NCBI GenBank assembly: GCA_963422705.1
Contig: OY730443.1
Coordinates: 2,910,956-2,974,955, forward strand
Length of the DNA stretch: 64,000 bases
Reading direction: 5' to 3'
DNA from: Candidatus Poribacteria bacterium
Lineage (GTDB): Bacteria; Poribacteria; WGA-4E; WGA-3G
Shown in pieces: positions 18,219-63,936 of the stretch. Both the position numbers and the translations under genes were made by a program. Below the pieces are notes generated by a model. That model had not been told where the DNA came from. It saw only the letters and a program-made list of their open reading frames with translations, and searched no databases. Each line of letters opens with the position of its first letter. Position 1 is the first letter of the stretch.

Positions 18219-19328
18219 TTACCCAGTCGCTAATTTGATAGTTGGCATCCGGGTGGGGTTTCTATCGAAAGCGTGAAGATTGTCCGCCGCATTGCGTACC
18301 TGAATTAATTGTGATGCGATGCTGACGGCAATCTCCGGAACGGTTTTGGAGTTAATATCCAACCCAATCGGCGCATAAACGCGCTGGAGGGCTCCCGTAG
18401 AAACGCCCAGTTCGGCTAAATCGTCAAAGATGAGTTTAATCTTGCGCCGGCTCCCGATTAGCCCGACGTATCTGGCATGGGATTCAACAACACTGTGGAG
18501 TGCGGACTCATCATGCTGATGCCCTCGCGTCACAATGACGACATAAGTCAGCGCATCTATTGGATACTTGCGTAGTTCTTCAGCAATATCGCCGATAATA
18601 ATTTCGTCTGCCTCTGGGAGCCGTTCTGACGACGCAAAATCTGCCCTATCATCAATCATGACGACATCAAAATCTAACCAGTTACCGAGATGGCAGAGCG
18701 CCTTACCAACATGCCCGGCCCCTGCGATGAGTAAAGTGGGACGCGGTTGCAGTGGTTCAAAAAAAACCGAATATGTTTGGTTGAATTCAAAGAGGCCGGG
18801 ACGGTTTTGTTCGATAATCGTATCGATTTTGCTTTCTACCGCGGTTTCCAAAGCGGTATTACCTAACGTGCCGATGCGTTCACCATTCAGGGCGAAAATC
18901 ATCTTCCTGCCCACATTCACGCTGCACTCTTCGCTTCTCACAACCATTGCACAAACGAGGGATATCTTCCGCGCATTGAGTGCTTGTATGCAGGTGAACA
19001 TCTCCGCTTCGGCTTCGGTTTGCGGAAGGTCGATGAAGATTTTCATATTCCCCCCACAGATAAGTCCATCGTCCCATCCATAGTCGCTATCCAATTGAAA
19101 CTCAAGCAGGCGTGGGATACCCCCTTGCATCAAGCCAATCGCTTGTCGACGGGCTTCAGCTTCAACACAGCCACCACCGAGTGTACCGATATTGCGAAGA
19201 TCCGGAAGGATTAACAGCTTCGAGCCCGGCTTTTGAGGTGTTGAGCCTTTCGTTTCCACAACTGTGCAATACGCACCAATTTGTGACGCCTCAATGAGTT
19301 CTGGGATTTTTTGATATATTTCTTTCAT
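18219..19328 (-). CDS. xdhC: XdhC/CoxI family molybdoenzyme maturation factor
   Basis: N-terminal XdhC_CoxI block (..GSTPQKPGSKLL.., GGCVEAE) and a C-terminal Rossmann-like LLIAGAGHVGKAL. Confidence 0.85.
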   Translation of the reverse strand: MKEIYQKIPELIEASQIGAYCTVVETKGSTPQKPGSKLLILPDLRNIGTLGGGCVEAEARRQAIGLMQGGIPRLLEFQLDSDYGWDDGLICGGNMKIFIDLPQTEAEAEMFTCIQALNARKISLVCAMVVRSEECSVNVGRKMIFALNGERIGTLGNTALETAVESKIDTIIEQNRPGLFEFNQTYSVFFEPLQPRPTLLIAGAGHVGKALCHLGNWLDFDVVMIDDRADFASSERLPEADEIIIGDIAEELRKYPIDALTYVVIVTRGHQHDESALHSVVESHARYVGLIGSRRKIKLIFDDLAELGVSTGALQRVYAPIGLDINSKTVPEIAVSIASQLIQVRNAADNLHAFDRNPTRMPTIKLATG

Positions 19329-50472: not shown

Positions 50473-51276
50473 ATGAAATCTATCATGCAATTAACTTTTG
50501 TAGGACTGAGTTTAATTTTCAGCGTTTGCTTCATCATCACGCCCAGCTTCGCAGCACTTGATATGAGCACTGTGACAGGACTTTGGCTCTTTGATGATGG
50601 GAGTGGTGACGTTGCCGTGGATTCATCCGATAGCGCACTTGATGCAGCGGTGATGGGCAGCCCCACGTGGGTAAGCGGAAAATTCGGTTCGGCGTTGGAA
50701 CTTAACGGCGTCGATGCTTACGTTGAAGTCCCCGCACACGTGAATCCAACCGACGCAATCACTATTTCAATGTGGGTGAAAGGGTTGAGCGAAAACTGGC
50801 TGCAAAACGGGTGGTTCATTGAAAAACGGGACGCATATATTATTCACCCGAACGCCGATACCAAGAATGTGTCCTGGCCGATTTGTAACGGTGGCTGTTG
50901 GAATAAGCCCGGCGGCTGGCGCGACGGGGAAGTCGGCCCAGAAAATATCATGGACTGGCATCTCTACACCACCACCTTTGACAGCACGACAGGGGAGTGG
51001 AATATTTACATCGATGGCATCGCGGAAAGCACCATGACTATTGACACGGCGCCGATTGATGCCGACGACGGGGCGCTCTTTATTGGCAGGGATACATGTT
51101 GCGACGGACGCTTCGGAAACGCCATTATTGACGAAGTCGCTATCTTCAATGTTGCCCTCGGCGCCGCGGATATCCAAACGTTGATGGAAAAAGGACTTTC
51201 AGCTACACTCCTGACACCCGTTGAACCCGTCGATAAACTCTCTACGAGATGGGCAGACGTTAAACAACAGTACTAA
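50473..51276 (+). CDS. secreted LamG (concanavalin A-like lectin) domain protein
   Basis: A signal peptide, then LWLFDDGSGD..A.DSS, GKFGSALELNG, WH..T..FD and IDEVAIFN, which are typical LamG_3 blocks. Confidence 0.8.
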   Translation: MKSIMQLTFVGLSLIFSVCFIITPSFAALDMSTVTGLWLFDDGSGDVAVDSSDSALDAAVMGSPTWVSGKFGSALELNGVDAYVEVPAHVNPTDAITISMWVKGLSENWLQNGWFIEKRDAYIIHPNADTKNVSWPICNGGCWNKPGGWRDGEVGPENIMDWHLYTTTFDSTTGEWNIYIDGIAESTMTIDTAPIDADDGALFIGRDTCCDGRFGNAIIDEVAIFNVALGAADIQTLMEKGLSATLLTPVEPVDKLSTRWADVKQQY

Positions 51277-51285
51277 GCTTTTATT

Positions 51286-51311
51286 AAAGGCGGATTCCTA
51301 TATCCGCTTTT
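51286..51311 (+). terminator. rho-independent terminator
   Basis: AAAGGCGGAT-tcctat-ATCCGCTTTT, 10 nt after the LamG stop, ending in a T-run. Confidence 0.6.
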
Positions 51312-51405
51312 AATAAATTAATTAAATTTTTGAGGTTTCCAACCCGAAAATCTCACTAGGCTCGCCCCACGGTTGCTCTAAAAACAAAGGAGATGACATC
51401 ATATC

Positions 51406-52191
51406 ATGACAGCAAAAGCGATTTTCGTGTCCCTAATAGCGGTGCTATTTGTAACCGCACCCCTGATACACGCCCAACTGCCTCTAGATGGCGTTGTCAG
51501 TTACTGGCCATTTGATGAGGGAACAATTGCCGGGAACACCGTTGAGGACGTTCTCGGGGATAACGACGGTGAACTTGATGGCAATTTTAAGAAAGTTGAT
51601 GGAAAAGTCGGAAAAGCGTTGGAATTCGATGGTGAAAATTTCGTCCATATTCCCGGCACGGCCACGCTAGAATTCGCAGGGGCAGAAGAGATGAGTGTTG
51701 CCGCCTGGGTAAACGCCGATAGCGACAGCCCGGTAAAAGGCGTCGTTGCCGGGTGTTGCGGGACTATCGTCGCCCAGCGCGATATGAACGGGTGGGCATT
51801 AAGATTCGATGGAAGAAATGCAGGACAAGAGATGGAATTTATTGTCATGCCCGGGTGGCAGGGTGATGGCGGCTTTGGCGCCGCAGCCTTCAAGAAGGGA
51901 CAGTGGCACCACATAGTCGGCATTGTGAACAAAAAGGAGATGTTACTCTACGTTGATGGACAATTAGAGAAAGAGATGACTTACAACGGTCCCATGGCAA
52001 CGAACGGTTCTGAAACCGAGATTGGCAAGGCGGGGGACGGTGGCTTCGTCGGCATCATTGACGAGGTAATGATTTATAGCAAGGCGCTCTCAGCTGATGA
52101 AGTCGAACAAATCTTTGAAGCAAAGGGGTTACCCGTTCAACCTACCGGTAAACTTACAACCACTTGGGCGAACGTTAAACACCAGGACTAA
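51406..52191 (+). CDS. secreted LamG domain protein
   Basis: A signal peptide, then YWPFDEG, GKVGKALEFDG, WHH..G.. and IDEVMIYS. Confidence 0.8.
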   Translation: MTAKAIFVSLIAVLFVTAPLIHAQLPLDGVVSYWPFDEGTIAGNTVEDVLGDNDGELDGNFKKVDGKVGKALEFDGENFVHIPGTATLEFAGAEEMSVAAWVNADSDSPVKGVVAGCCGTIVAQRDMNGWALRFDGRNAGQEMEFIVMPGWQGDGGFGAAAFKKGQWHHIVGIVNKKEMLLYVDGQLEKEMTYNGPMATNGSETEIGKAGDGGFVGIIDEVMIYSKALSADEVEQIFEAKGLPVQPTGKLTTTWANVKHQD

Positions 52192-52430
52192 GCCGTTTCC
52201 AAATCAGGTTCCCCCCGGGGGGAGAAAATAAAAAATCACACGAAAACGTTGCGTTTGAAAATCCAAATTTCATGTCAATAAAACATGTGTAAGAAGCAGA
52301 ACCATTTCGCACCCCGCTCAGAACGATGCTAAATCCCACGTCGTGTGGGGGCGATTATCTGCTCGCGATATCCCTTGAGAAACTGAAAACGAAACGCCCT
52401 CGCTTGAGCGTTAATACGAAAGGAGCCGTT

Positions 52431-53513
52431 ATGGAACCAGTAAGAGTCGGCGTTATCGGATGTGGCGTGATTGGCAGTAGACATCTCAATATCGCCGCAA
52501 CCGCACCGCATATTGAGCTCGTCGCCGCGGCAGACATCATCCAAGAAAATCGGCAGCGGGCCGTCAAACGATTTCAGCCACCGAAAATGTACGAGAATGA
52601 CGTTGAACTGCTCAATGACGATGACATTGAGGCGGTTGTCCTCGCCTTTCCGACACAATACCGCACCGAGGTGGCACTCCGCGCCTTTGAAAGCGGCAAA
52701 CACGTGCTGATAGAAAAACCGATTGCGATGAACGCCGATGAGGTTGAAAAACTTATCGCGGCCCGGGGTTCCCTGACGTCGGCTTGCTGCTCATCGCGCA
52801 ATCGCTTTTCCAAATCCGCGCAGCTCGCGACGCGGCTGATTACGGCCGGCGAGTTAGGAGAACTTCGTACCGTCTACTGCCGGGCTATCGTTGGGGCGCG
52901 CCAAAAACCGGACACCCCGCGCCCAGCATGGCGGTTAATAAAGGAAATGAACGGCGGAGGAATTCTCGTCAACTGGGGATGCTACGATATCGATTATCTG
53001 CTCGGGATTACCGGATGGGAACTCAAACCGAAAACAGTCTTCGCGCAAACCTGGACTGTACCCCAGCGCTTTGAATCCCACATCGCACCCGGCTCCGATG
53101 CAGAAACACACTACACCGCTCTCATTCGCTGTGACGGCGGAACGGTAATTAGCCTCGAACGGGGAGAGTTTATGACGATGCAGTCGCACGCCGACTGGCA
53201 GATTATCGGAACAAAAGGTTCACTCAAACTCAAAATGGGCGACGGAAAACCGGAAAGCGTCACCCATAACCAAACAACAATGGAAGGCGGTGTCACGGCA
53301 GCACCCCTCCCCGATTTCACAATCGACAACGACGGCAAGAAAATTCAGGGTATCACATCTCAATACGATACCCCGTTGGCAGATTTCGCCGCCGCAATTC
53401 GTGAAAACAGGCAACCCATGACATCCCTGGAACAGGCGCTTGTTGTCCAGAAAATAACCGATGCTATTTACACCTCGGCAGAGAGAGCAACCGCTGTGGA
53501 AATAGGAGGCTAA
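52431..53513 (+). CDS. Gfo/Idh/MocA family oxidoreductase
   Basis: VGVIGCGVIGSRH Rossmann motif and EKP. ATG at 52431 is preceded by AAAGGAG; the track start at 52326 is rejected. Confidence 0.85.
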   Translation: MEPVRVGVIGCGVIGSRHLNIAATAPHIELVAAADIIQENRQRAVKRFQPPKMYENDVELLNDDDIEAVVLAFPTQYRTEVALRAFESGKHVLIEKPIAMNADEVEKLIAARGSLTSACCSSRNRFSKSAQLATRLITAGELGELRTVYCRAIVGARQKPDTPRPAWRLIKEMNGGGILVNWGCYDIDYLLGITGWELKPKTVFAQTWTVPQRFESHIAPGSDAETHYTALIRCDGGTVISLERGEFMTMQSHADWQIIGTKGSLKLKMGDGKPESVTHNQTTMEGGVTAAPLPDFTIDNDGKKIQGITSQYDTPLADFAAAIRENRQPMTSLEQALVVQKITDAIYTSAERATAVEIGG

Positions 53514-53515
53514 AC

Positions 53516-53918
53516 ATGAAGCCCATCGCTCTATTTTTTTTACGGGCTCAATCATAACTCCATATTGTTGTACAGCATCGGTACCAGCATCACGCTCTTT
53601 TCTCTCAGCTATTTGGATGACTTCGACGGTGTCTGGTTGTTCGATGAAGACAACGGAAAAACCGCATCAAACGGAACGGTGGGGCCGGCTTCTGGGCAAT
53701 GAGCGCTAGTATTGATAGAAACACCGGTTTTTTTATCTTTGAAGGCGGCGGGCATCACATTGACGATGGAAAAACCGAGATTGTTAAGAAGGGCTGGCAT
53801 CACACCGTCGCTGTCCGGAGAAATGGCGTTATCTCCCTCTACGTCGACGGTGAAAAGGAGACAGAGCGCAATGTCGGCGCCAATATGGATAATCCCGCAT
53901 CCCTCAAATTCGGTGACA
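53516..53918 (+). pseudogene. third LamG gene, degraded (frameshift in T8 run, internal stop, 3' end deleted)
   Basis: AGGAGG lies 6 nt before ATG 53516 (MKPIALFF..). The frame is lost in a run of 8 T. LamG blocks occur in other frames (LDDFDGVWLFDEDNGK.., GWHHTVAVRRNGVISLYVDGE). Homology ends abruptly at about 53918. Confidence 0.6.
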
Positions 53919-54094
53919 GGGGCTTTCACCGCTGATTTTGGCAGCGGTTCCCCCGCTGATTTCGGCAGCGATTCAACGCGTTTGTCACGCTTGAGCGGTG
54001 CTTTCCGGGACTGTGTCTGTAGCAAGTAGAGGCTCACAGCAACAACTGCCAGGAGCAACAGAGATAAACTGAACCAGATTTTTCGGATAACCAT
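53919..54094 (-). pseudogene. truncated sixth copy (F6') of the array family: first ~59 codons only
   Basis: MVIRKIWFSLSLLLLAVVAVSLYLLQTQSRKAPLKRDKRVESLPKSAGEPLPKSAVKAP, then antisense LamG remnant sequence. The track ORF 53609-54199 is therefore chimeric. Confidence 0.65.
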
Positions 54095-54293
54095 TCGGTG
54101 CTCCTTCCACACGTGTACGTGCACGGTGAAATCACACCAACGCAGCTCCGATGAGTTGCGCGGGGAAATACAACGGATGGGCGTGTTGCCGAAACACAAC
54201 TACGTCCCAAATCGAAAAGATACTTTTACGCCAAGATTCAACGTCACAGACATTTTAGAAAAAAACACATGTTTTCGCACGCATTTTTTGAGA

Positions 54294-54326
54294 CAATACC
54301 AGCAAAAAAATACACACTGTTTTCAT
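54294..54326 (-). pseudogene. decapitated remnant of the M15 peptidase gene start (ATGAAAACAGTGTGTATTTTTTTGCTGGTATTG)
   Basis: It lies 12 nt after the F5 stop. It matches the first codons (MKTVCIFLL..) of the gene at 60746 and is then fused to leader sequence. Confidence 0.65.
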
Positions 54327-54338
54327 GATAAAACACCT

Positions 54339-55259
54339 CTATTTTAGACGCGCAAGCGCACCGCGCGCGGCTATTTCTTCATCGTAATTAGGTTTTTCTT
54401 GCGCCAAAACCGCTTCCCATCTTGGTATCAGGATGTGTTCCACAATGCCGCCGAGCTCGGCACGATGCCGTGCGGCAATCCTGCCTAATACCTCAATGGG
54501 GTAACGTCGTTCGTAGGGCTTCGCGCCCATATCAAGCATATAAGGGATAAGATACGGCACGGCAGCCACCCCCATCTCTGCCAACATATTTATCGGACTC
54601 AGTCCTCCAACAAGCCCTTCACAGAGATAAGTTGCCATAACAACGATAGAACGCGGGTCATTCGTATCAAGACTGCCGAGTAGATCGAATGTTTCTTCCA
54701 TATCGCTGTGTCCTGTCGGGCCTGAAAACCCATCGGGGGACGGCATGAGTTGCGCGATGAGGCTAGGCGTTTCGGGGTTCGGCACACCGCCCCATTCCCA
54801 GATATTGTTGGCGATGTACTCCACCCGGTGCCACGCCGCAAGCACCGCCGGTTCGGTGATACCTTCAGGGATGTCCACTACTGCGGCGGTATACTCGCGC
54901 GAGGCGGACACCGCCGGCGACGCAGCAATATTCTCGTTAGGAACTTCAGGGGGCGCAGGCAGTTCGGCATGCGATTCTTCGACGGGCACTTCTCCACCTT
55001 TGTTAGGAATTTCGGGGGTATCAGACTGTTCGGCGTCCCGTGCGTCGCCGGGCACTTCTCCGCCTTGCGAGGACTCATCAACGGGGGCTTTCACCGCTGA
55101 TTTTGGCAGCCCTTCCCCCGCTGATTTCGGCAGCGATTCAACGCGTTTGTCACGCTTGAGGGATTCTTTGGGAGACTGTGTCTGTAGCAAATAGAGGCTC
55201 ACAGCAACAACTGCCAGGAGCAACAGAGATAAACTGAACCAGATTTTTCGGATAACCAT
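54339..55259 (-). CDS. array family protein F5 (signal-anchor, PE-rich linker, unknown C-terminal domain)
   Basis: 306 aa. GGAAGGAG lies 7 nt before the ATG (MVIRKIWF..). It has a TM helix and is a paralog of F1-F4. Confidence 0.8.
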   Translation of the reverse strand: MVIRKIWFSLSLLLLAVVAVSLYLLQTQSPKESLKRDKRVESLPKSAGEGLPKSAVKAPVDESSQGGEVPGDARDAEQSDTPEIPNKGGEVPVEESHAELPAPPEVPNENIAASPAVSASREYTAAVVDIPEGITEPAVLAAWHRVEYIANNIWEWGGVPNPETPSLIAQLMPSPDGFSGPTGHSDMEETFDLLGSLDTNDPRSIVVMATYLCEGLVGGLSPINMLAEMGVAAVPYLIPYMLDMGAKPYERRYPIEVLGRIAARHRAELGGIVEHILIPRWEAVLAQEKPNYDEEIAARGALARLK

Positions 55260-55458
55260 TCGGCACTCCTTCCACACGTGTACGTGCACGGTGAAATCAC
55301 ACCAACGCAGCTCCGATGAGTTGCGCGAGGAAATACAACGGATGGACGTGTTGCCGAAACACAACTACGTCCCAAATCGAAAAGATACTTTTACGCCAAG
55401 ATTCAACGTCACAGACATGCTAGAAAAAAACACATGTTTTCGCAAGCATTTTTTGATA

Positions 55459-55491
55459 CAATACCAGCAAAAAAATACGCACTGTTTTCAT
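55459..55491 (-). pseudogene. decapitated remnant of the M15 peptidase gene start
   Basis: 12 nt after the F4 stop; same sequence logic as 54294-54326. Confidence 0.65.
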
Positions 55492-55503
55492 GATAAAACA
55501 CCT

Positions 55504-56409
55504 CTATTTTAGACGCGCAAGCGCATCGCGCGCGGATTTTCCTTCATGGTAATCCGGTTCTTCTTGCGCCAAAATCGCTTCCCATCTCGGTATCAGGATG
55601 TGTTCTACAATGCCGCCGAGCTCGGCACGATGCTGTGCGGCAATCTTGCCTAATACGTCAATCGGGTAACGTCGTTCGTAGGGCTTCGCGCCCATATCAA
55701 GCATATAAGGGATAAGATACGGCACGGCAGCCACCCCCATCCTTGCCAACGCATTTTCTGGTCCCAGTCCTCCAACACGCCCTCCACAGTAGTAAGTTGC
55801 CATAACGACGATAGAACGCGGGTCATTCGTATCGAGGCTGCCGAGTCGATTGAATGTTTCTTCCATATCGCTGTGTCCTGTCGGGCCTGAAAACCCATCG
55901 GGGGACGGCATGAGTTGCGCGATGAGGCCAGGCGTTTCGGGGTTGGGTACACCGCCCCATTCCCAGATATTGTTGGCGATGTATTCCACCCGGTGCCACG
56001 CCGCAAGCACCGCCGGTTCGGTGATACCTTCAGGGATGTCCACTACTGCCGGGGTATACTCGCGCGAGGCGGACACCGCCGGCGCAGCAATACCCTCGTT
56101 AGGAACTTCAGGGAGCGCAGACCGCTCGGCATGCGATTCTTCGACGGGCACTTCTCCGCCTTTGTTAGGAATTTCGGGGGTATCAGGCTGTTCCTCGCCG
56201 GGCCGTTCTCCGCCTTGCGAGGGTTCATCAACGGGGGCTCCCCCCGCTGATTTTGGCAGCTCTTCCCCCGCTGATTTCAGCAACGATTCAACGGGGGTGG
56301 CACGCTTGAGGGATTCTTTGGGAGACTGTGTCTGTAGCAAATAGAGGCTCACAGCAACAACTGCCAGGAGCAACAGAGATAAACTGAACCAGGGTTTTCG
56401 GATAACCAT
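55504..56409 (-). CDS. array family protein F4
   Basis: 301 aa, same architecture. The RBS is GGAAGGAG. Confidence 0.8.
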   Translation of the reverse strand: MVIRKPWFSLSLLLLAVVAVSLYLLQTQSPKESLKRATPVESLLKSAGEELPKSAGGAPVDEPSQGGERPGEEQPDTPEIPNKGGEVPVEESHAERSALPEVPNEGIAAPAVSASREYTPAVVDIPEGITEPAVLAAWHRVEYIANNIWEWGGVPNPETPGLIAQLMPSPDGFSGPTGHSDMEETFNRLGSLDTNDPRSIVVMATYYCGGRVGGLGPENALARMGVAAVPYLIPYMLDMGAKPYERRYPIDVLGKIAAQHRAELGGIVEHILIPRWEAILAQEEPDYHEGKSARDALARLK

Positions 56410-56457
56410 TCGGCGCTCCTTCCACACGTGTATGTGCAGGGTGACATCATTTTGAGA

Positions 56458-56491
56458 CAATACCAGCAGAAGAAATACACACTGTTTTCAT
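56458..56491 (-). pseudogene. decapitated remnant of the M15 peptidase gene start
   Basis: 13 nt after the F3 stop (ATGAAAACAGTGTGTATTTCTTCTGCTGGTATTG). Confidence 0.65.
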
Positions 56492-56504
56492 GATAAAAAC
56501 ACCT

Positions 56505-57359
56505 CTATTTTAGACGCGAAAGCGCATCGCGCGCCCGCTTTTCTTCAGAGTAATCCGGTTTTTCTTGCGCCAAAATCGATTCCCATCTCGGTATCAGGAT
56601 GTGTTCCACAATGCCCTCTAAATCGGCGCGATGCCGTGCGGCAATCTTGCCTAATACGATAATCGCTCTACTTCGTAAGTTCGGACTGTGCTCCATATCA
56701 AGCATATAACGGATAAGATACGGCACGGCAGCCACCCCCATCCTTGCCAACGCATTTTCTGGTCCCAGTCCTCCAACACGCCCTCCACAGTAGTAAGTTG
56801 CCATAACGACGATAGAACGCGGGTCATTCGTATCGAGGCTGCCGAGTCGATTGAATGTTTCTTCCATATCGCTGTGTCCTGTCGGGCCTGAAAACCCATC
56901 GGGGGACGGCATGAGTTGCGCGATGAGGCCAGGCGTTGCGGGGTTGGGCACACCGCCCCATGCCCAGATATTGTTGGCGATGTATTCCACCCGGTGCCAC
57001 GCCGCAAGCACCGCCGGTTCAGTGATACCTTCAGGGATGTCCACTACCGCGGGGGTATACTCGCGCGAGGCGGACACACCCGGCCGCGCAGCAATACCTT
57101 CGTTAGGAACTTCGGAGGTATCAGGCGGTTCGGCGTCCCGTGCGTCGACGGGCACTTCTCCACCTTGCGAAGGCTCATCAACGGGGGCTCCCGCCGCTGA
57201 TTTTGGCAGCGGTTTCCCCGCTGATTTCGGCAGCGATTCAACGCGTTTGTCACGCTTGAGGGATTCTTTGGGAGACTGTGTCTGTAGCAAGTAGAGACTC
57301 ACACCAACAACGGCGATGAGCAACAGAGATAAACTGAACCAGGGTTTTCGGATAACCAT
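56505..57359 (-). CDS. array family protein F3
   Basis: 284 aa with the shortest linker. Confidence 0.8.
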   Translation of the reverse strand: MVIRKPWFSLSLLLIAVVGVSLYLLQTQSPKESLKRDKRVESLPKSAGKPLPKSAAGAPVDEPSQGGEVPVDARDAEPPDTSEVPNEGIAARPGVSASREYTPAVVDIPEGITEPAVLAAWHRVEYIANNIWAWGGVPNPATPGLIAQLMPSPDGFSGPTGHSDMEETFNRLGSLDTNDPRSIVVMATYYCGGRVGGLGPENALARMGVAAVPYLIRYMLDMEHSPNLRSRAIIVLGKIAARHRADLEGIVEHILIPRWESILAQEKPDYSEEKRARDALSRLK

Positions 57360-57438
57360 TCGGCGCTCCTTCCACACGTGTACGTGCAGGGTGAAATCAC
57401 ACCAACGGAGCTCCGATGAGTTACGCGGGGATTTGAGA

Positions 57439-57472
57439 CAATACCAACAGAAAAAATACGCACTGTTTTCAT
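57439..57472 (-). pseudogene. decapitated remnant of the M15 peptidase gene start
   Basis: 13 nt after the F2 stop (ATGAAAACAGTGCGTATTTTTTCTGTTGGTATTG). Confidence 0.65.
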
Positions 57473-57485
57473 GATAAAAATACCT

Positions 57486-58382
57486 CTATTTTAGACGCGA
57501 AAGCGCATCGCGCGCGGCTATTTCTTCATCGTAATTAGGTTTTTCTTGCGCCAAAATCGCTTCAAATCTCGGTATCAGGATGTGTTCTACAATCCCGCCT
57601 AGCTCCGCGCGATGCCGTGCGGCAATCCTGCCTAATATGATAATGGGTCTATACCGTAATAGCGGTGTCATCTCCATATCAAGCATATAAGGGATAAGAT
57701 ACGGCACGGCAGGAACCCCCATCTCTACCAACATATCTATCGGACCCATCCCTCCAACAATCCCTTCACAGAGGTAAGTTGCCATAACGACGATAGAACG
57801 CGGGTCATTCGTATCGAGGCTGCCGAGTCGATTGAATGTTTCTTCCATATCGCTGTGTCCTGTCGGGCCTGAAAACCCATTGGGGACGGGCATGAGTTGT
57901 GCGATGAGGCCAGGCGTTGCGGGGTTGGGCACACCGCCCCATGCCCAGATATTGTTGGCGATGTACTCCACCCGGTGCCACGCCGCAAGCACCGCCGGTT
58001 CGGTGATACCTTCAGGGATGTCCACTACCGCGGGGGTATACTCGCGCGAGGCGGACACACCCGGCCGCGCAGCAATACCTTCGTTAGGAACTTCGGAGGT
58101 ATCAGGCGGTTCGGCATGCGATTCTTCGACGGACACTTCTCCACCTTTGTTAGGAACTTCGGGGGTATCAGACTGTTCGGCGTCCCGTGCGTCGACGGGC
58201 ACTTCTCCACCTTGCGAAGGCTCATCAACGGGGGCTTTCACCGCTGATTTCGGCAGCGATTCAACGCGTTTGTCACGCTTGAGCGGTGCTTTCGGGGACT
58301 GTGTCTGTAGCAAGTAGAGGCTCACAGCAACAACTGCCAGGAGCAACAGAGATAAACTGAACCAGATTTTTCGGATAACCAT
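57486..58382 (-). CDS. array family protein F2
   Basis: 298 aa, same architecture. Confidence 0.8.
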   Translation of the reverse strand: MVIRKIWFSLSLLLLAVVAVSLYLLQTQSPKAPLKRDKRVESLPKSAVKAPVDEPSQGGEVPVDARDAEQSDTPEVPNKGGEVSVEESHAEPPDTSEVPNEGIAARPGVSASREYTPAVVDIPEGITEPAVLAAWHRVEYIANNIWAWGGVPNPATPGLIAQLMPVPNGFSGPTGHSDMEETFNRLGSLDTNDPRSIVVMATYLCEGIVGGMGPIDMLVEMGVPAVPYLIPYMLDMEMTPLLRYRPIIILGRIAARHRAELGGIVEHILIPRFEAILAQEKPNYDEEIAARDALSRLK

Positions 58383-58730
58383 TCGGCACTCCTTCCACAC
58401 GTGTACGTGCCGGGTCAAATCACACCAACGCAGCTCGGATAAGTTGCGAGGGGAAATGCAACGGATGGGCGTGTTGCTGAAACACAACTACGTCCCAAGA
58501 GGGTGCTAGTCTCTATTGGTATCGCACACAAACCGAGTTGTACGCTATGATAGAAACTAGCGCTGTTATCGTCTACTTACGGGTGCTCGGTAAAGCATTC
58601 TATAAAAAACACACACTGTTCGGCAAGCATTTTTTCATACAATAACGCCAATAAGACGAACGCCCCCGCAATCAAAAGAACATAGGGTTGAAAAGGGTGA
58701 TGCTGTTTCTCTCATCGTCGAAAAAGCACA

Positions 58731-60746
58731 CTACTCCGGCCAACACCGCAGCCCGTTTCTCTTTCGATACGGCTTATTGCAAATCGGGGTGCTACGGACA
58801 CACCGCTGCCAGGTTTGACGGCATTCGCGCAAACGACACGTACGCACCCTATGTTTATTCTCGGCACTCTCCGATTCAGGATTATACGAATGTCCCGCAG
58901 AACACGTCGCAACAAAACGGTGTTCATGCGGGGTGCAATAATAATAACCACCAGAAGTCTGACACGAATACGGGCCATATTCCATACGACACGATGATAC
59001 CCACGCATGATACGAACGCCGTCGACGATGCGTCGTGTCATGTCCACACGCATATTGACGCACCGCAGACGGTGCCGGTACCTCTGGATAGACATGTTTA
59101 TGGCTCGGACGCGTACAGACATAATACGTCCCGATGAGACACGCCTTGCCATTCTTGCTAGGGCAGAACTGTGCTTCGGTATGTGAACGCCCGGCTTTAC
59201 AACGATAACCCGAATGTGAACCACACGGCAATGTGCCATACGCATGACGAGAAAACTCAGACGACGATGGCGGTTGACACGCATAATAACTATGTGAACC
59301 ACACGAAAAACTCACTGATGCATGAGAAGACGCTTCAGCCTTCTTATGACGATGCCCACACGGACTCGTTACATACGTATCGCTCGGCGCCGGTGCAGCT
59401 GGAAATCTATGAACATGCGGGGTACACGCATAATAGTCACTCCCGTTCGTACACGTATCGCCATTCGAATTCGTCACCGAACACGAGGAGATACGAGAAT
59501 GCTCGCCACTCGCCGTCAAAGGGTGCCCACACCGATGATATTGCCCGGCGGGCGGATGCATCACCCGCGGTTGCAGGGACGACAGCACCTGCACAGCAGT
59601 CGTGGTGCTGTCAGTGCCTTTCGGCGGCTCACACGGCGGAGAATAGACGGTACCAGGAAAGGGCGGCCAACTCCCGCCATCTCCCCGACGCAACGTCCAA
59701 TCCGCATGCGTATGTGTGCTATAGTATTCCCAAGAACCTGTCCATTTCGCACCCGCATCTATGGCACTACGTGCCATCAGTTTAGCATCATCGCTTTTTG
59801 CCTCGTTTTTTCTTACCTGCTCCACCGTGCCATCGCCATCGACATCAAGCGTCTTAATATCTAACGCATCGCCATAGCAGTGGCGACTATGGAAGGAGGC
59901 CTTAGCGGGCGCAGCGACATGAAATCGCTGGTGATACGGGTTGCGATACGCACTGTTGACTTTGAAGGCTTTATCCGAAAAGACGGCTAATCCATTCTTC
60001 TTGCGGTATGCGTTGACTTGCGACAGCCACCCCGACTTTTTGGCTTTCAAGCCGTCATCTATCATATAACGGTAGTGTCCCGTATTCCAGTCATCAACGC
60101 CGTTGCTCGATAGCTCATCCTTAAATTTATCGCGCGCAGGAACAGGCAACTCGGCCCGAGCATCCGGCGGTGTCATGTCCACATATTCCTGACGCAGTAT
60201 GTCAATTTCATCTTGCGTCCACGTTTTCGTCAGCCTCACAGTCTTCAGGTTATCGGCATCCGAACCGTAGTAGCCGATAAACTGGATTTTTACCGCCATC
60301 GGGGTGTTGCCTCTGCCATTTTTACCACGACATGTTTCAACCTTTGTCGTATCCGCGGGACCCTCCAACATCGCCTCCACTGAAAAAGTGGTGTCCGGCG
60401 AAAACGGCGACACATCAGAAACGCGACTCGACTTCACCGCCTTGCGCACCGTAAAACCGTTGTTCATCGTAATCTGAAAATTAAAACGCTCAATCGGGTA
60501 GACATACTGTGAAGGTTGGCGCGCACAATACTTCACATCGACTTTCACACATGCCGTCTTCTCTGAGTTCGTAATAAATGTCGTGAAAACCGCGTTATCT
60601 GAACCGGAACTTTGCCCGATTGTCCAATCTCCCCAACGGACACACGGCGCTGTTGGGGAGACTTCACCAGAAACCAGCGCTGTTCGCACCGACAGACACG
60701 GTACCAATACCAGCAGAAAAAGTAAAAAAATACACACTGTTTTCAT
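58731..60746 (-). CDS. secreted M15-type (hedgehog/DD-peptidase fold) zinc peptidase-like protein with C-terminal Cys/His-rich repeats
   Basis: 671 aa with signal peptide MKTVCIFLLFLLVLVPCLSV. M15 zinc motifs are SRHCYGDALDI (S-x-H-x-x-G-x-A-x-D) and THTHAD (H-x-H). The ATG lies 12 nt after the F1 stop. Confidence 0.8.
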   Translation of the reverse strand: MKTVCIFLLFLLVLVPCLSVRTALVSGEVSPTAPCVRWGDWTIGQSSGSDNAVFTTFITNSEKTACVKVDVKYCARQPSQYVYPIERFNFQITMNNGFTVRKAVKSSRVSDVSPFSPDTTFSVEAMLEGPADTTKVETCRGKNGRGNTPMAVKIQFIGYYGSDADNLKTVRLTKTWTQDEIDILRQEYVDMTPPDARAELPVPARDKFKDELSSNGVDDWNTGHYRYMIDDGLKAKKSGWLSQVNAYRKKNGLAVFSDKAFKVNSAYRNPYHQRFHVAAPAKASFHSRHCYGDALDIKTLDVDGDGTVEQVRKNEAKSDDAKLMARSAIDAGAKWTGSWEYYSTHTHADWTLRRGDGGSWPPFPGTVYSPPCEPPKGTDSTTTAVQVLSSLQPRVMHPPAGQYHRCGHPLTASGEHSRISSCSVTNSNGDTCTNGSDYYACTPHVHRFPAAPAPSDTYVTSPCGHRHKKAEASSHASVSFSCGSHSYYACQPPSSSEFSRHAYGTLPCGSHSGYRCKAGRSHTEAQFCPSKNGKACLIGTYYVCTRPSHKHVYPEVPAPSAVRQYACGHDTTHRRRRSYHAWVSSCRMEYGPYSCQTSGGYYYCTPHEHRFVATCSAGHSYNPESESAENKHRVRTCRLRECRQTWQRCVRSTPICNKPYRKRNGLRCWPE

Positions 60747-60758
60747 GATAAAACACCA

Positions 60759-61667
60759 CTATTTTAGACGCGCAAGCGCATCGCGCGCGGATTTTTCTTC
60801 AAAGTAATCCGGTTTTTCTTGCGCCAAAATCGCTTCAAATCTCGGTATCAGGATGTGTTCTACAATCCCGCCTAGCTCCGCGCGATGCCGTGCGGCAATC
60901 CTGCCTAATACCTCAATAGGGTAACTTCGTTCGTAGGGCTTTGCACCCATATCAAGCATATAAGGGATAAGATACGGCACGGCAGCCACCCCCATCTCTG
61001 CCAACATATTTATCGGACTCAGTCCTCCAACAAGCCCTTCACAGAGATAAGTTGCCATAACAACGATAGAACGCGGGTCATTCGTATCAAGACTGCCGAG
61101 TAGATCGAATGTTTCTTCCATATCGCTGTGTCCTGTCGGGCCTGAAAACCCATCGGGGGACGGCATGAGTTGTGCGACGAGGCCAGGCGTTGCGGGGTTG
61201 GGCACACCGCCCCATGCCCAAATATTGTTGGCGATGTACTCCACCCGGTGCCACGCCGCAAGCACCGCCGGTTCGGTGATACCTTCGGGGATGTCCACCA
61301 CTGCCGGGGTATACTCGCGCGAGGCGGACACCGCCGGCCGCGCAGCAATACCTTCGTTAGGAACTTCGGAGGTATCAGGCGGTTCGTCGACGGGCCCTTC
61401 TCCACCTTTGTTAGGAATTTCGGGGGTATCAGGCGGTTCGGCATCCCGTGCATCGACGGGCACTTCTCCACCTTGCGAAGGCTCATCAACGGGGGCTTTC
61501 ACCGCTGATTTTGGCAGCGGTTCCCCCGCTGATTTCGGCAGCGATTCAACGCGTTTGTCACGCTTGAGGGATTCTTTGGGAGACTGTGTCTGTAGCAAAT
61601 AGAGGCTCACAGCAACAACTGCCAGGAGCAACAGAGATAAACTGAACCAGATTTTTCGGATAACCAT
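60759..61667 (-). CDS. array family protein F1
   Basis: 302 aa; first copy, directly upstream of the intact M15 gene. Confidence 0.8.
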   Translation of the reverse strand: MVIRKIWFSLSLLLLAVVAVSLYLLQTQSPKESLKRDKRVESLPKSAGEPLPKSAVKAPVDEPSQGGEVPVDARDAEPPDTPEIPNKGGEGPVDEPPDTSEVPNEGIAARPAVSASREYTPAVVDIPEGITEPAVLAAWHRVEYIANNIWAWGGVPNPATPGLVAQLMPSPDGFSGPTGHSDMEETFDLLGSLDTNDPRSIVVMATYLCEGLVGGLSPINMLAEMGVAAVPYLIPYMLDMGAKPYERSYPIEVLGRIAARHRAELGGIVEHILIPRFEAILAQEKPDYFEEKSARDALARLK

Positions 61668-61824
61668 TCGGCACTCCTTCCACACGTGTACGTGCACGGT
61701 GAAATCACACCAACGCAGCTCCGATGAGTTGCGCGGGGAAATACAACGGATGGACGTGTTGCCGAAACACAACTACGTCCCAAATCGAAAAGATACTTTT
61801 ACGCCAAGATTCAACGTCACAGAC

Positions 61825-61853
61825 ATGCTAGAAAAAAACACATGTTTTCGCAA
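61825..61853 (-). promoter_or_regulatory. candidate promoter TTGCGA-17-TAGCAT in the conserved array leader
   Basis: Read on the minus strand. The same element recurs in the F5 leader, and as GTGCGA-17-TAAAAT in the F6' leader. It is absent from the shortened F3/F4 leaders. Confidence 0.3.
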
Positions 61854-61874
61854 GCATTTTTTGAGACAATCGAG

Positions 61875-62468
61875 TTATTGGATTCGTAGAGATTCCTTGA
61901 TTGCTTTAATCTCTTTTAATCCTTTGCGGTTGGCTTCACTCGGATAGAAAAAGTATAACAATTCATGCATGACAATCGCCTCGTCTAGAAGGAGCCCCTC
62001 CTCTTCTTGTGCTCTGTGATATAAATCAATGAATTGCTCAATTTCTGGAATCTCCCCGTGTTTTTGTATCAGTCCTTCTCTGATAGCATCTTTATTGGAT
62101 GCTGTTATGGATGGAAATTTCCAGGTAGGGGCGGTTGTACCGGTGTTTATCTCTTCCTCCTTTTGCCACGCTGGTTCCTCATCAGCCGTTAAGGTGGGGG
62201 ACAATGGTGTGTCCTTATCTGTCTCTAGAGACGGTATGTGTGGTTCTGCGGTTGATGTCCGGTTAGGCTGAGGGTTCGGGTGTTCACTGATATCTTCGTC
62301 ATCTTTTATCAGGGCAGCGTCGGGTTTTTCTGGTATTTTCTCCTCTGTTTACTGCTTTACAGGCACTGTGGGGAAACTCTTCTCAAAACGTTTATTATCG
62401 ATATGAATATAGATAGCAGACGCGCAACATAAGAGAATAATAAAGAGGAAAAACAAAATGGCTTTCAT
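61875..62468 (-). pseudogene. hypothetical exported protein gene interrupted by an in-frame TAA
   Basis: AAGGAG precedes ATG 62468 (MKAILFFLFIILLCCASAIYI.., a TM/signal segment). TAA lies at 62349-62351. The same frame stays open to 61875, which is track ORF 61875-62204. Confidence 0.4.
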
Positions 62469-62698: not shown

Positions 62699-62930
62699 GT
62701 GATAGCACCCACACGCGAAAGCGTGGGGCTTCGGTTTCGTAGCAACTGCGGTTTTCTCATAGAGTCAACCGTCTTACTGTCGCTCCACCAGCGGGCGTTT
62801 CCCTGTAGGTTTCTACAGGCATATCGTCAAGTGACGGCTATCCCTGCCCGCAAAATGTTTCGCGCAGCGTTGATGTCTCTATCGTGGTGGGAACCACAGG
62901 CGGGGCATGTCCACTGCCTATCGTCCAATG
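62699..62930 (-). ncRNA. putative TnpB omega-RNA (reRNA) scaffold / IS right end
   Basis: The 3' end of tnpB plus about 125 nt downstream contains hairpins (CCTGTAGAAACCTACAGG, CCACGCTTTCGCGTGTGG). It ends in GGGTGCTATCAC at 62699, mirroring the GTGAGTATCAC termini at 34179 and 35962. The 5' boundary is a guess. Confidence 0.4.
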
Positions 62931-63936
62931 TTAGGGTTTCGTTATGAAAACCGCAATCACGACAAGGTTTGGTTGTAGCTGTCCATTGTCCGACTTTTTT
63001 AAAATGATGCTTATGTTTTTGACACTTATATTCCAATATCTTAACGAACTGGTAGAAGGCGAGGTCCGATACTTTACGCCCCCACAGGCGTTTCATGCCG
63101 TCAAGGTTCAATGTCTCAAGGACAATGATATCAAACTTTTTACAAAGTTCACTTGCCAGTTGCCAGTGAAAATCTTTGCGGTGGTTGCTAATTTTCCGAT
63201 ACAGACGTGCGAGTTGTCTCACACACCGCCACCACCGGTTAGAACCTTTAACTTTACGAGAAAACGCTTTATTGAGAGTCCGAAGTTTGTTCAAGGACTG
63301 TTTCAAAGGTTGTGGGTGTTGGATTTTCTCACCCGTGCTAAGTGTCAAGTACGCGTCTTTCATTCCGAAGTCTGCCCCAACGCTTTTACCTGTTGTCGGC
63401 AGTGGTAAAAAATCTGTGTCATCCGTTATGAGGTAAAGCCAATAGTCGCCGCAATTGTCACGTTTGATCGTGATACGCCTAAGTTTTCCATGCCAGTGGC
63501 GGTGTTTATGAAACGTATAAGGCACTTTATCAAATCGCCACTTCCCTTTATCCCACTGACGAAAACTGAGTGTAATACGGTTGTTAGTGAGTTTAAATCC
63601 AGTTTGTTTCAGCGTGATAGACTTAAACTTATGCTCCGGTTTGATATGGGGGTTACCTCCCCGTTTATTAAAGAACCTTTGATACGCATTATCAATTCGT
63701 TCCAACTCTGCTTGGAGCCCTTGGCTTGGCAACAACTTCCAATGTTGATGTATGGTTCGTTTCAATATGCAGGCATGTTGACACATTGCAGCGTAGTTGG
63801 CATACGGCAAGCCGTCTTTATACCGGTGACGCTGCCACTTATGGAAATAGACATGCACCTGCCACATATCGTCAAGCAGATTTCCAATGCGGATGGTATT
63901 AGATTGTTTCCCAAGCGGGTATTTATAGGTTTTCAT
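62827..63936 (-). CDS. tnpB: IS200/IS605-family TnpB (RNA-guided RuvC nuclease), apparently intact
   Basis: 369 aa. RuvC-I is VGADFGMKD, RuvC-II is IVLETLN, the zinc ribbon is CRDCGF..CPACG and RuvC-III is HHDRDINAARNI. No tnpA is seen within the 64 nt left upstream. Confidence 0.9.
   Translation of the reverse strand: MKTYKYPLGKQSNTIRIGNLLDDMWQVHVYFHKWQRHRYKDGLPYANYAAMCQHACILKRTIHQHWKLLPSQGLQAELERIDNAYQRFFNKRGGNPHIKPEHKFKSITLKQTGFKLTNNRITLSFRQWDKGKWRFDKVPYTFHKHRHWHGKLRRITIKRDNCGDYWLYLITDDTDFLPLPTTGKSVGADFGMKDAYLTLSTGEKIQHPQPLKQSLNKLRTLNKAFSRKVKGSNRWWRCVRQLARLYRKISNHRKDFHWQLASELCKKFDIIVLETLNLDGMKRLWGRKVSDLAFYQFVKILEYKCQKHKHHFKKVGQWTATTKPCRDCGFHNETLTLDDRQWTCPACGSHHDRDINAARNILRAGIAVT

Follow-up and report, generated by a model that had tools for sequence, protein, structure and literature searches.

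We found that the arrangement of a gene that we call F directly upstream of a gene for an M15-like peptidase is an operon specific to the Poribacteria, in which F is kept, amplified and constrained, while the peptidase gene stays single and is often truncated. The case that led to this result is an array on the minus strand of a 64,000-nucleotide (nt) stretch of DNA from a Candidatus Poribacteria bacterium (the window; coordinates are positions in it unless a locus is named). The array consists of one peptidase gene, five intact copies of F and one broken copy, and an initial annotation of it had covered positions 54294–60760. The mechanics by which duplication left scars in this array are ordinary; what is new biologically is a phylum-wide pair of genes in which the partner has been amplified recurrently. 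In our analysis the best reading of F is an array of inhibitors or immunity-like partners of the peptidase, and we give this reading about an even chance of being correct.

The linkage was examined by scanning one genome per species with an F profile, which yielded 52 loci with 67 F genes; all of the organisms named for these loci are Ca. Poribacteria. The F genes were sorted by the feature found downstream. An intact peptidase gene on the same strand followed F in 27 of the 67 cases, with a gap between the F stop codon and the peptidase start of at most 56 nt and mostly of 12–47 nt. A shortened, split or frameshifted peptidase gene followed in 8 cases, a 5′ remnant of 33–216 amino acids (aa) in 14, a stump no longer than 12 codons, with the next F behind it, in 6, another F with no stump in 4, and nothing recognizable in 8. 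The initial annotation had proposed that F and the peptidase are coupled, and had set the neighborhood of F in other genomes beforehand as a test that could refute the proposal; the coupling held. The number of tandem F copies per locus in other genomes was one to four. Because the peptidase profile, when used to scan metagenomes, retrieved only remote LAS-domain relatives (27–41% identity), nine peptidase genes were looked up singly. Eight of them had F directly upstream, and the ninth was preceded by a protein that shares the anchor but has another C-terminal domain. The distances between F C-terminal domains and those between peptidase cores co-varied (r = 0.83 for 32 pairs), and this r was reached in 0 of 2000 permutations.

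One genome contained six intact F genes at four loci with a peptidase gene beside none of them. For these six genes the ratio of nonsynonymous to synonymous substitution rates (dN/dS) was 0.13–0.31 at dS values of 0.24–1.36 (0.75–1.36 for 14 of the 15 pairs); the orphan F genes are intact and under purifying selection. They are the main weakness of an alternative in which F is a positive partner (an anchor, localizer, activator or turnover adaptor) of an endogenous wall-remodeling enzyme, and the array provides dosage or sub-functionalized paralogs with no antagonism. We consider this alternative a serious competitor but fairly unlikely, because the helper of a lost enzyme should decay too, whereas about half of the F genes have no adjoining intact peptidase gene, at least four genomes have multiplied F but not the enzyme, and the enzyme has been truncated repeatedly with F surviving. 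The occurrence of several divergent pairs per genome also speaks against it. It does account well for the strong co-divergence of the two proteins, for the anchored protein upstream of every sampled peptidase gene (9/9), for an enzyme with a conserved catalytic core and a Sec signal alone, with no delivery genes seen nearby, and for the one locus that lies beside AnmK and NamZ.

F belongs to no family in Pfam, NCBIfam or PHROG. Its homologs form at least 236 clusters of 260–320 aa, from Ca. Poribacteria wherever the source is named. The AlphaFold model has an N-terminal transmembrane helix at residues 3–27, a disordered linker, and a confident all-alpha C-terminal domain (approximately residues 120–302 in F1) of nine helices, for which the predicted local distance difference test score is above 90 in the majority of 10-residue blocks from residue 131 onward. 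The model predicts that F is anchored in the membrane and exposes an alpha-solenoid to the periplasm, in agreement with the anchored, outward-facing folded domain proposed in the initial annotation. Profile searches of the PDB with the C-terminal domain matched a synthetic fusion protein of unstated repeat type (E = 2.4e-9), a phycocyanobilin lyase subunit (0.045) and importin-alpha (0.06–0.1). The best Foldseek matches were designed armadillo proteins (E = 0.087, probability 0.93, TM-score about 0.26), a weak likeness of the ARM/HEAT type. The linker of most family members carries a GHxHxDGTFH motif, in place of which the window copies have Pro/Glu-rich repeats; these are 66 nt (22 aa) long, and their copy number is different in each F.

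Pairwise comparison of copies F1 through F5 gave dS values of 0.085–0.18. The core of the C-terminal domain is strongly constrained, with nonsynonymous differences per site (pN) of 0–0.03 vs. synonymous differences (pS) of 0.05–0.2. In three patches, at aligned positions 211–235, 246–265 and 281–305, pN equaled or exceeded pS. Each variable patch corresponds to a loop and the start of the following helix in the F model, and the same positions vary family-wide. We infer that the three patches make up a single variable surface.

The peptidase core contains the motifs SxYR..H, HxxHxYGxAxD and HxHADW; the first two, and the HxHAD of the third, are also those of Peptidase_M15_3 and M15A LAS enzymes such as the L,D-endopeptidase MepK, from which the Poribacteria proteins differ in having an additional N-terminal beta-sandwich domain and a long tail, rich in Cys and His, of variable length. 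Among 23 homologs, the zinc-site residues Y267, R268, H272, H289, G292, A294 and D296 are invariant and H347, A348, D349 and W350 near-invariant. The family PF08291 (Peptidase_M15_3) was matched by 13 of the 23 at E ≤ 0.01 (best 3.7e-7), and the MepK model was matched weakly by 2. Although the window protein is itself below the threshold, the matches of these 13 homologs make a LAS/M15-type zinc peptidase probable as a family-level assignment from sequence. PHROGs and NCBIfam held no usable family for it. A PDB profile search of the core reached an M15C domain only at E = 0.46 among hits that were mostly His-tag artifacts, and all of the fold-search hits for the full model were immunoglobulin-like or cupredoxin-like and fell on the N-terminal domain. 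A match of residues 33–101 (60444–60650) to the NCBIfam model of the colicin Z C-terminal domain, found for 4 of the 23 homologs, was rejected as too weak (16.6 bits vs. a cut-off of 50); in colicin Z this domain is thought to bind the receptor. The tail consists of modules of the form CGH..H..C..YYxCxPHxH, for which there is no Pfam family and whose length differs between homologs; it is possibly a new zinc-binding repeat.

Two other kinds of protein are encoded at F loci. A small membrane protein of 60–100 aa, with at least three sequence types and tblastn matches in approximately 20 loci, often lies just upstream of F; no copy of it was found in the window. The conserved module in other genomes may thus comprise three genes, the small membrane protein included. 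The second kind has an F-like N-terminal anchor (MxKKLYWGL..) on other C-terminal domains, and one such protein takes the place of F ahead of a 954-aa peptidase, which suggests that the anchored periplasmic partners form a family larger than F.

In the reading of F as an inhibitor or immunity-type partner, F would bind its cognate peptidase in the periplasm and restrain the enzyme, and extra copies diversified in the patches would broaden the range of peptidase variants that are neutralized, like a homogeneous polyimmunity array. Indirect support for this reading comes from the orphan F genes, the recurrent decay of the peptidase gene and the variable patches. Such a partner would explain all four elements of the observed pattern: that F persists, multiplies and is constrained; that the enzyme gene occurs singly, is often truncated and was never seen without an anchored partner; that the two proteins diverge in step; and that the variation of F is concentrated in patches. 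The binding, the inhibition and the target wall, whether that of the own cell or of neighbors, are what we infer from this pattern.

Several observations weigh against an inhibitor or immunity-like role. The whole-gene dN/dS of the window F copies is below 1 (0.44–0.86); the hints of diversifying selection are local, and relaxed constraint could mimic them. The purifying selection seen in orphan F genes may date from before they lost the partner, and some of the "disrupted" peptidase genes in metagenome-assembled genomes may be homopolymer sequencing errors. The export signal of the peptidase is only of the Sec type, and genes for type VI secretion (T6SS), type VII secretion (T7SS), contact-dependent inhibition (CDI) or Rhs proteins were present in none of the neighborhoods read (eleven annotated loci), as the initial annotation had noted for T6SS, T7SS and CDI genes in the window. 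The genes around F loci vary by locus, no secretion apparatus was seen in any locus read, and the Pfam families of the type VI parts Hcp, VgrG and PAAR were absent among the neighbors in the same eleven loci. How the enzyme would reach other cells is thus unexplained, and its action may be confined to the wall of its own cell. In addition, F lies upstream of the enzyme gene and not downstream, and the catalytic domain is central and conserved (about residues 230–356) instead of being a variable C-terminal cassette. The enzyme assignment has its own difficulties: the window peptidase scored below the Pfam cut-offs (17.3 vs. 23.2 bits for PF08291 and 22.3 vs. 25 for PF13539), and a Foldseek search of the full model against PDB and BFVD returned no LAS structure, its hits being dominated by the N-terminal beta-sandwich. 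Finally, the present order of the array, with the intact gene behind copy 1 and L1-type leaders (described below) at the distal end, requires further rearrangements.

Roughly half of the probability that we assign to an inhibitor or immunity-like F falls to antagonism between cells. This would be a phylum-specific antagonism without an injection machine, in which a Sec-exported three-part wall peptidase attacks neighbors, F is the immunity protein that is amplified and kept as an orphan, and the small membrane protein is a third component; we put this forward tentatively, as an unlikely version. The accompanying assignments, in which the beta-sandwich would be a targeting domain, the tail a set of zinc-rich repeats, and the dense sponge community the setting, are just as tentative. 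A phage lysis cassette was also considered and is unlikely, as the F profile matched nothing in viral contigs.

The known systems closest to an inhibitor or immunity array are the homogeneous polyimmunity loci, which were described together with HEAT-repeat immunity proteins and with toxins exported by Sec or type II secretion (T2SS) (Zhang et al. 2012, PMC3482391). Like those loci, the array consists of tandem paralogs in the same orientation with short spacers, the copy number varies by genome, and genes of mobile elements are often near. The definition of such a locus (at least four tandem genes of one family, in one orientation, with small spacers and varying content) describes the window array. 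Protein-binding folds, HEAT repeats in PMC3482391, and orphan copies that persist without a toxin gene are further points in common. The initial annotation had noted a resemblance to polymorphic toxin systems, from which the locus departs in the order of its genes and domains and in the type of cassette. In polymorphic toxins the variable toxin domain is at the extreme C terminus, which is not so in the peptidase; the immunity gene is downstream, whereas F is always upstream; and standalone 3′ toxin cassettes occur, whereas all of the remnants here are 5′ ends (PMC3482391). As for trafficking, the peptidase has only a signal peptide and a lineage-specific domain and would fall in the Sec/T2SS class of that study.

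Type VI pairs such as Tae/Tai and Tse1/Tsi1 are alike in that the gene for a wall-cleaving enzyme lies beside the gene for a periplasm-facing partner. The wall-hydrolase effectors of type VI systems have no signal peptide and depend on the T6SS, whereas the enzyme here has a Sec signal, T6SS genes are absent from the neighborhoods read, and the partner families are unrelated. Tae3/Tai3 is cited in PMC11796386. A literature search for M15 type VI effectors returned mostly matches to the strain name "lacZ delta-M15". The colicin M immunity protein Cmi protects against an imported wall-targeting toxin and has an N-terminal anchor in the inner membrane and a periplasmic body, the same layout as that predicted for F. 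Colicin M itself has no signal peptide, contains receptor and translocation domains, and cleaves lipid II; it is not a LAS peptidase, and its immunity gene is oppositely oriented, in contrast to the array. We know of no arrays of colicin M/Cmi genes. Colicin M and Cmi are mentioned in PMC6668396. The model for a positive partner is an alpha-solenoid envelope protein that works with a wall endopeptidase, as in NlpI-MepS-Prc and LbcA-CtpA. In these systems a helical-repeat envelope protein binds the endopeptidase and controls its activity or level. NlpI and LbcA are tetratricopeptide-repeat lipoproteins that are not in an operon with the enzyme, not amplified and not retained as orphans; F, in contrast, is in an operon with the enzyme, amplified, and kept as an orphan.

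The order of the array on the minus strand is L1 leader, F1, 12 nt, the intact peptidase gene, L2 leader, then F2, F3, F4 and F5, each with a stump of the peptidase gene behind it, and finally an L1-type leader with the broken copy F6′ (Table 1). The intact gene is thus behind copy F1 and not behind the final copy. The repeat units are direct repeats of 1.0–1.2 kb with 76–98% identity, and the pattern is not a product of chance. The start codon of F is the ATG of MVIRK.., 6 nt past GGAAGGAG, and six such arrangements are present; F6′, which lies outside the range covered initially, retains the full L1 leader, the ribosome-binding site (RBS), the ATG and about 176 nt of coding sequence.

Table 1. 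Coordinates of features in the window and, where a locus number (L) precedes them, in loci fetched from other genomes
Feature	Position	Strand	Remarks
Leader L1 of F1	61668..61866	-	199 nt; begins right behind CGATTG; RBS GGAAGGAG
F1	60759..61667	-	302 aa
Intact M15/LAS-like peptidase gene	58731..60746	-	671 aa
Peptidase, signal peptide	60687-60746	-	hydrophobic, Sec-type
Peptidase, beta-sandwich N-terminal domain	60213-60659	-	
Peptidase, LAS zinc-peptidase core	59679-60059	-	model confident over residues 230-350
Peptidase, Cys/His-rich repeat tail	58734-59549	-	low model confidence
Leader L2 of F2	58383..58639	-	behind intact peptidase gene; begins past GTTATTG
F2	57486..58382	-	298 aa, intact
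Stump 2	57439..57472	-	34 nt, frameshifted; 57-aa open reading frame (ORF) runs across F3 start
F3	56505..57359	-	284 aa, intact
Stump 3	56458..56491	-	34 nt, frameshifted; 14-aa ORF
F4	55504..56409	-	301 aa, intact; shortest leader
Stump 4	55459..55491	-	33 nt, in frame; 23-aa ORF; junction ATTG/TATCAAAAAATGC
L1-type full leader of F5	55260-55458	-	
F5	54339..55259	-	306 aa, intact
Stump 5	54294..54326	-	33 nt, in frame; 23-aa ORF
L1-type leader and F6′	53919..54293	-	leader 54095-54293; ATG 54094; first ~58 codons remain; break ~53919
Decayed LamG (Laminin_G_3-like) pseudogene	53565..53935	+	distal rearrangement boundary of array; F6′ fused to it tail-to-tail
66-nt repeats in F linkers	54914-55066, 56076-56162, 57080-57166, 58061-58213, 61334-61474		
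Small membrane protein upstream of F	L002:8931-9116, L005:8808-9113, L073:2896-3105, L074:2869-3090, L075:2540-2812, L078:1860-2069		
Proteins with F-like anchor	L014:4749-5375, L028:8878-9483, L043:9429-10073, L046:8872-9492, L055:9048-9728, L077:2024-3004		
LamG genes	window 50473-53935 (+); L001:12614-16355; L004:3444-5170; L002:13402-14199		
Two 177-aa genes	L003:11015-14029 (= L007 locus)		peptidase N-terminal domain only
F-peptidase locus adjoining AnmK and NamZ	L079:5337-7742		peptidoglycan-recycling genes; single case

The sequence ATGAAAACAGTG occurs exactly five times on the minus strand, at 60746, 57472, 56491, 55491 and 54326, in each case 12 nt (F1, F4, F5) or 13 nt (F2, F3) past an F stop codon (..CGTCTAAAATAG). 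At 60746 it opens the intact 671-aa gene, and at the other four sites it continues for only 33–34 nt. Every stump ends in ..GGTATTG, followed by the start of the next leader, TCTCAAA.. or TATCAAAAAATGC.. (T(C/A)TCAAA..). These findings bear out the initial annotation, which had described the start of the M15 gene behind each F copy as one intact gene and four stumps of about 33 nt joined to the next leader. The native F1 leader begins with TCTCAAAAAATGC directly behind CGATTG at 61866, and GTTATTG precedes the F2 leader. Comparison with the intact gene showed that the stumps are its first 42 nt (14 codons) minus a deletion in a T-rich tract of 8 nt (F2, F3) or 9 nt (F4, F5), as a result of which two stumps are out of frame and only two keep the peptidase frame. 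The stump peptides (57, 14, 23 and 23 aa) are alike no further than codon 6–11. Because the peptides are unlike and two are frameshifted, the stumps are not modules; they are duplication scars without a function of their own, and the proposal of a module of 11-codon stumps has to be given up.

The leaders are of three kinds: L1 (F1, F5, F6′), L2 (F2), and internally deleted leaders from which the promoter-like part is gone (F3, F4). In the last kind, 150–200 nt were lost, differently in each. L1 contains the promoter-like site TTGCGA-17-TAGCAT (8/12 matches) and L2 the site TTGCCG-18-TAGAAT at 58626–58597; approximately 95 nt of L2 are absent from L1. Scans for promoters and terminators gave no enrichment over shuffled sequence. 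The lack of a promoter-like leader on F3 and F4, together with the Shine-Dalgarno-like TAGAGGTG and the ATG kept in all stumps, could indicate that the stumps function as leader peptides or in translational coupling for these two copies, or as homology blocks for cassette-type variation of F at a single peptidase gene. Frequent gene conversion, as indicated by mosaic units, and the presence of short stumps in further genomes would fit as well. We judge such functions improbable, however: frames and peptides differ from stump to stump, and junctions vary by genome between 7 codons and 216 aa, which fits random ends with the integrity of F as the sole filter. Direct repeats that recombine would remove the peptidase gene rather than exchange it, and F1, F2, F5 and F6′ have promoter-like leaders of their own and are thus not silent cassettes. 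The four stumps carry TAGAGGT(G/A) (57473–57485, 56492–56504, 55492–55503 and 54327–54338), which is nearer to the Shine-Dalgarno consensus than the TAGTGGTG of the intact gene (60747–60758).

Because all four stumps have a common junction, we conclude that there was one founding event at an ATTG microhomology. It would have joined codon 14 of the peptidase gene to the start of the F leader, after which gene conversion and unequal homologous recombination would have increased the number of leader-F-stump units and reshuffled them. The similarity between units is mosaic and shows both processes at work: F1 and F5 are 98% identical over the C-terminal domain region, F2 and F6′ have N-terminal variants in common, and F1 and F2 have 3′ variants in common. 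A tandem duplication of the L1 leader, F and the 42 nt fits the L1-type leaders behind stumps 4 and 5. The unit and the ATTG junction that the initial annotation had inferred are thus upheld, but one duplication does not explain the intact gene behind copy 1 or the L2 leader at F2; a single tandem duplication would place the intact gene last, as in the arrays at L036, L037, L042 and L054. The order could stem from an ancestor with two tandem operons, such as those at L017, L039 and L040, or from later recombination.

An event by which F, but not the enzyme gene, is copied or kept must end either in the spacer of 12–13 nt or, as will happen much more frequently, within the enzyme gene, where it leaves a stump. 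The range of remnant lengths fits random breaks within that gene. In other genomes the short stumps have other sequences and junctions: MKVKCLVF joined to SC and a stop codon (L036, L042), MNRKFY.. (L038), VNRKFTF.. with a GTG start (L033) and, at L037, a stump fused in frame to the F that follows. Such stumps thus have independent origins. A diversity-generating retroelement was rejected on two points, namely that the differences between copies involve all four bases and that there is no template repeat outside the array; no scan of the window for a reverse transcriptase gene was made. At one locus in another genome (L003), two genes that encode only the N-terminal domain of the peptidase are 99.4% identical, against only 73% for the F genes that immediately precede them; this contrast fits a recent conversion limited to one portion of the unit, or rapid divergence of F.

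The distal end of the array was cut by an unrelated rearrangement and is therefore uninformative about its history. The syntenic relative L001 has F and the peptidase gene immediately ahead of LamG-LamG-GFO-LamG, all in one orientation. In the window the two genes are inverted and found on the downstream side of the LamG genes, and the third LamG gene is truncated; relative to L001, this pseudogene has lost its last ~55 codons and ~230 nt internally. A single inversion from an L001-like arrangement was rejected, since the partner fragments that it predicts are absent from the window. The junction with a pseudogene, the differences in homopolymer tract length between copies, and a TnpB/IS605 OrfB gene 1 kb upstream would be expected if the array were neutral debris, that is, recent functionless duplications in a repeat-prone region beside mobile elements, or an assembly artifact. 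We regard this as very improbable: all five copies are intact with an RBS at dS 0.085–0.18 and with a core pN near zero, the 2–24% difference between units is not that of collapsed or duplicated reads, a protein search placed the window proteins on a single 4.0-Mb contig, and the same architecture is present in independent genomes.

Poribacteria are uncultivated, abundant symbionts of sponges. Our literature search found no paper on how they compete or control their cell wall, and the F and peptidase families are both uncharacterized. If F inhibits the peptidase, it would represent a fold new among immunity proteins or inhibitors of LAS peptidases and a natural series of diversified inhibitors in which the three variable patches mark the interface, and the 5′ stumps would record amplification of the partner while a dangerous enzyme gene stays single or is lost. 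If F is instead a positive partner, the pair would represent a new kind of autolysin control. Either way, the phylum-wide pattern of a kept partner and a truncated enzyme is a testable evolutionary signature.

The remaining observations concern the surroundings of the array. LamG (Laminin_G_3) genes are close to F-peptidase loci in several genomes, which may only mirror the abundance of LamG in the phylum. An ORF at 61875–62330 (minus strand), which stops 7 nt short of the F1 leader, has 151 open codons but a start codon for the last 109 only; a homolog was present in none of the fetched loci, and the ORF may be a truncated gene. The TnpB/IS605 OrfB-type gene (62827–63936, minus strand) encodes a Cas12f1-like TNB domain; the second 369-aa ORF of the window (18219–19328) is unrelated to it. 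Transposase or TnpB genes were also found beside the F loci in L003 and L074.

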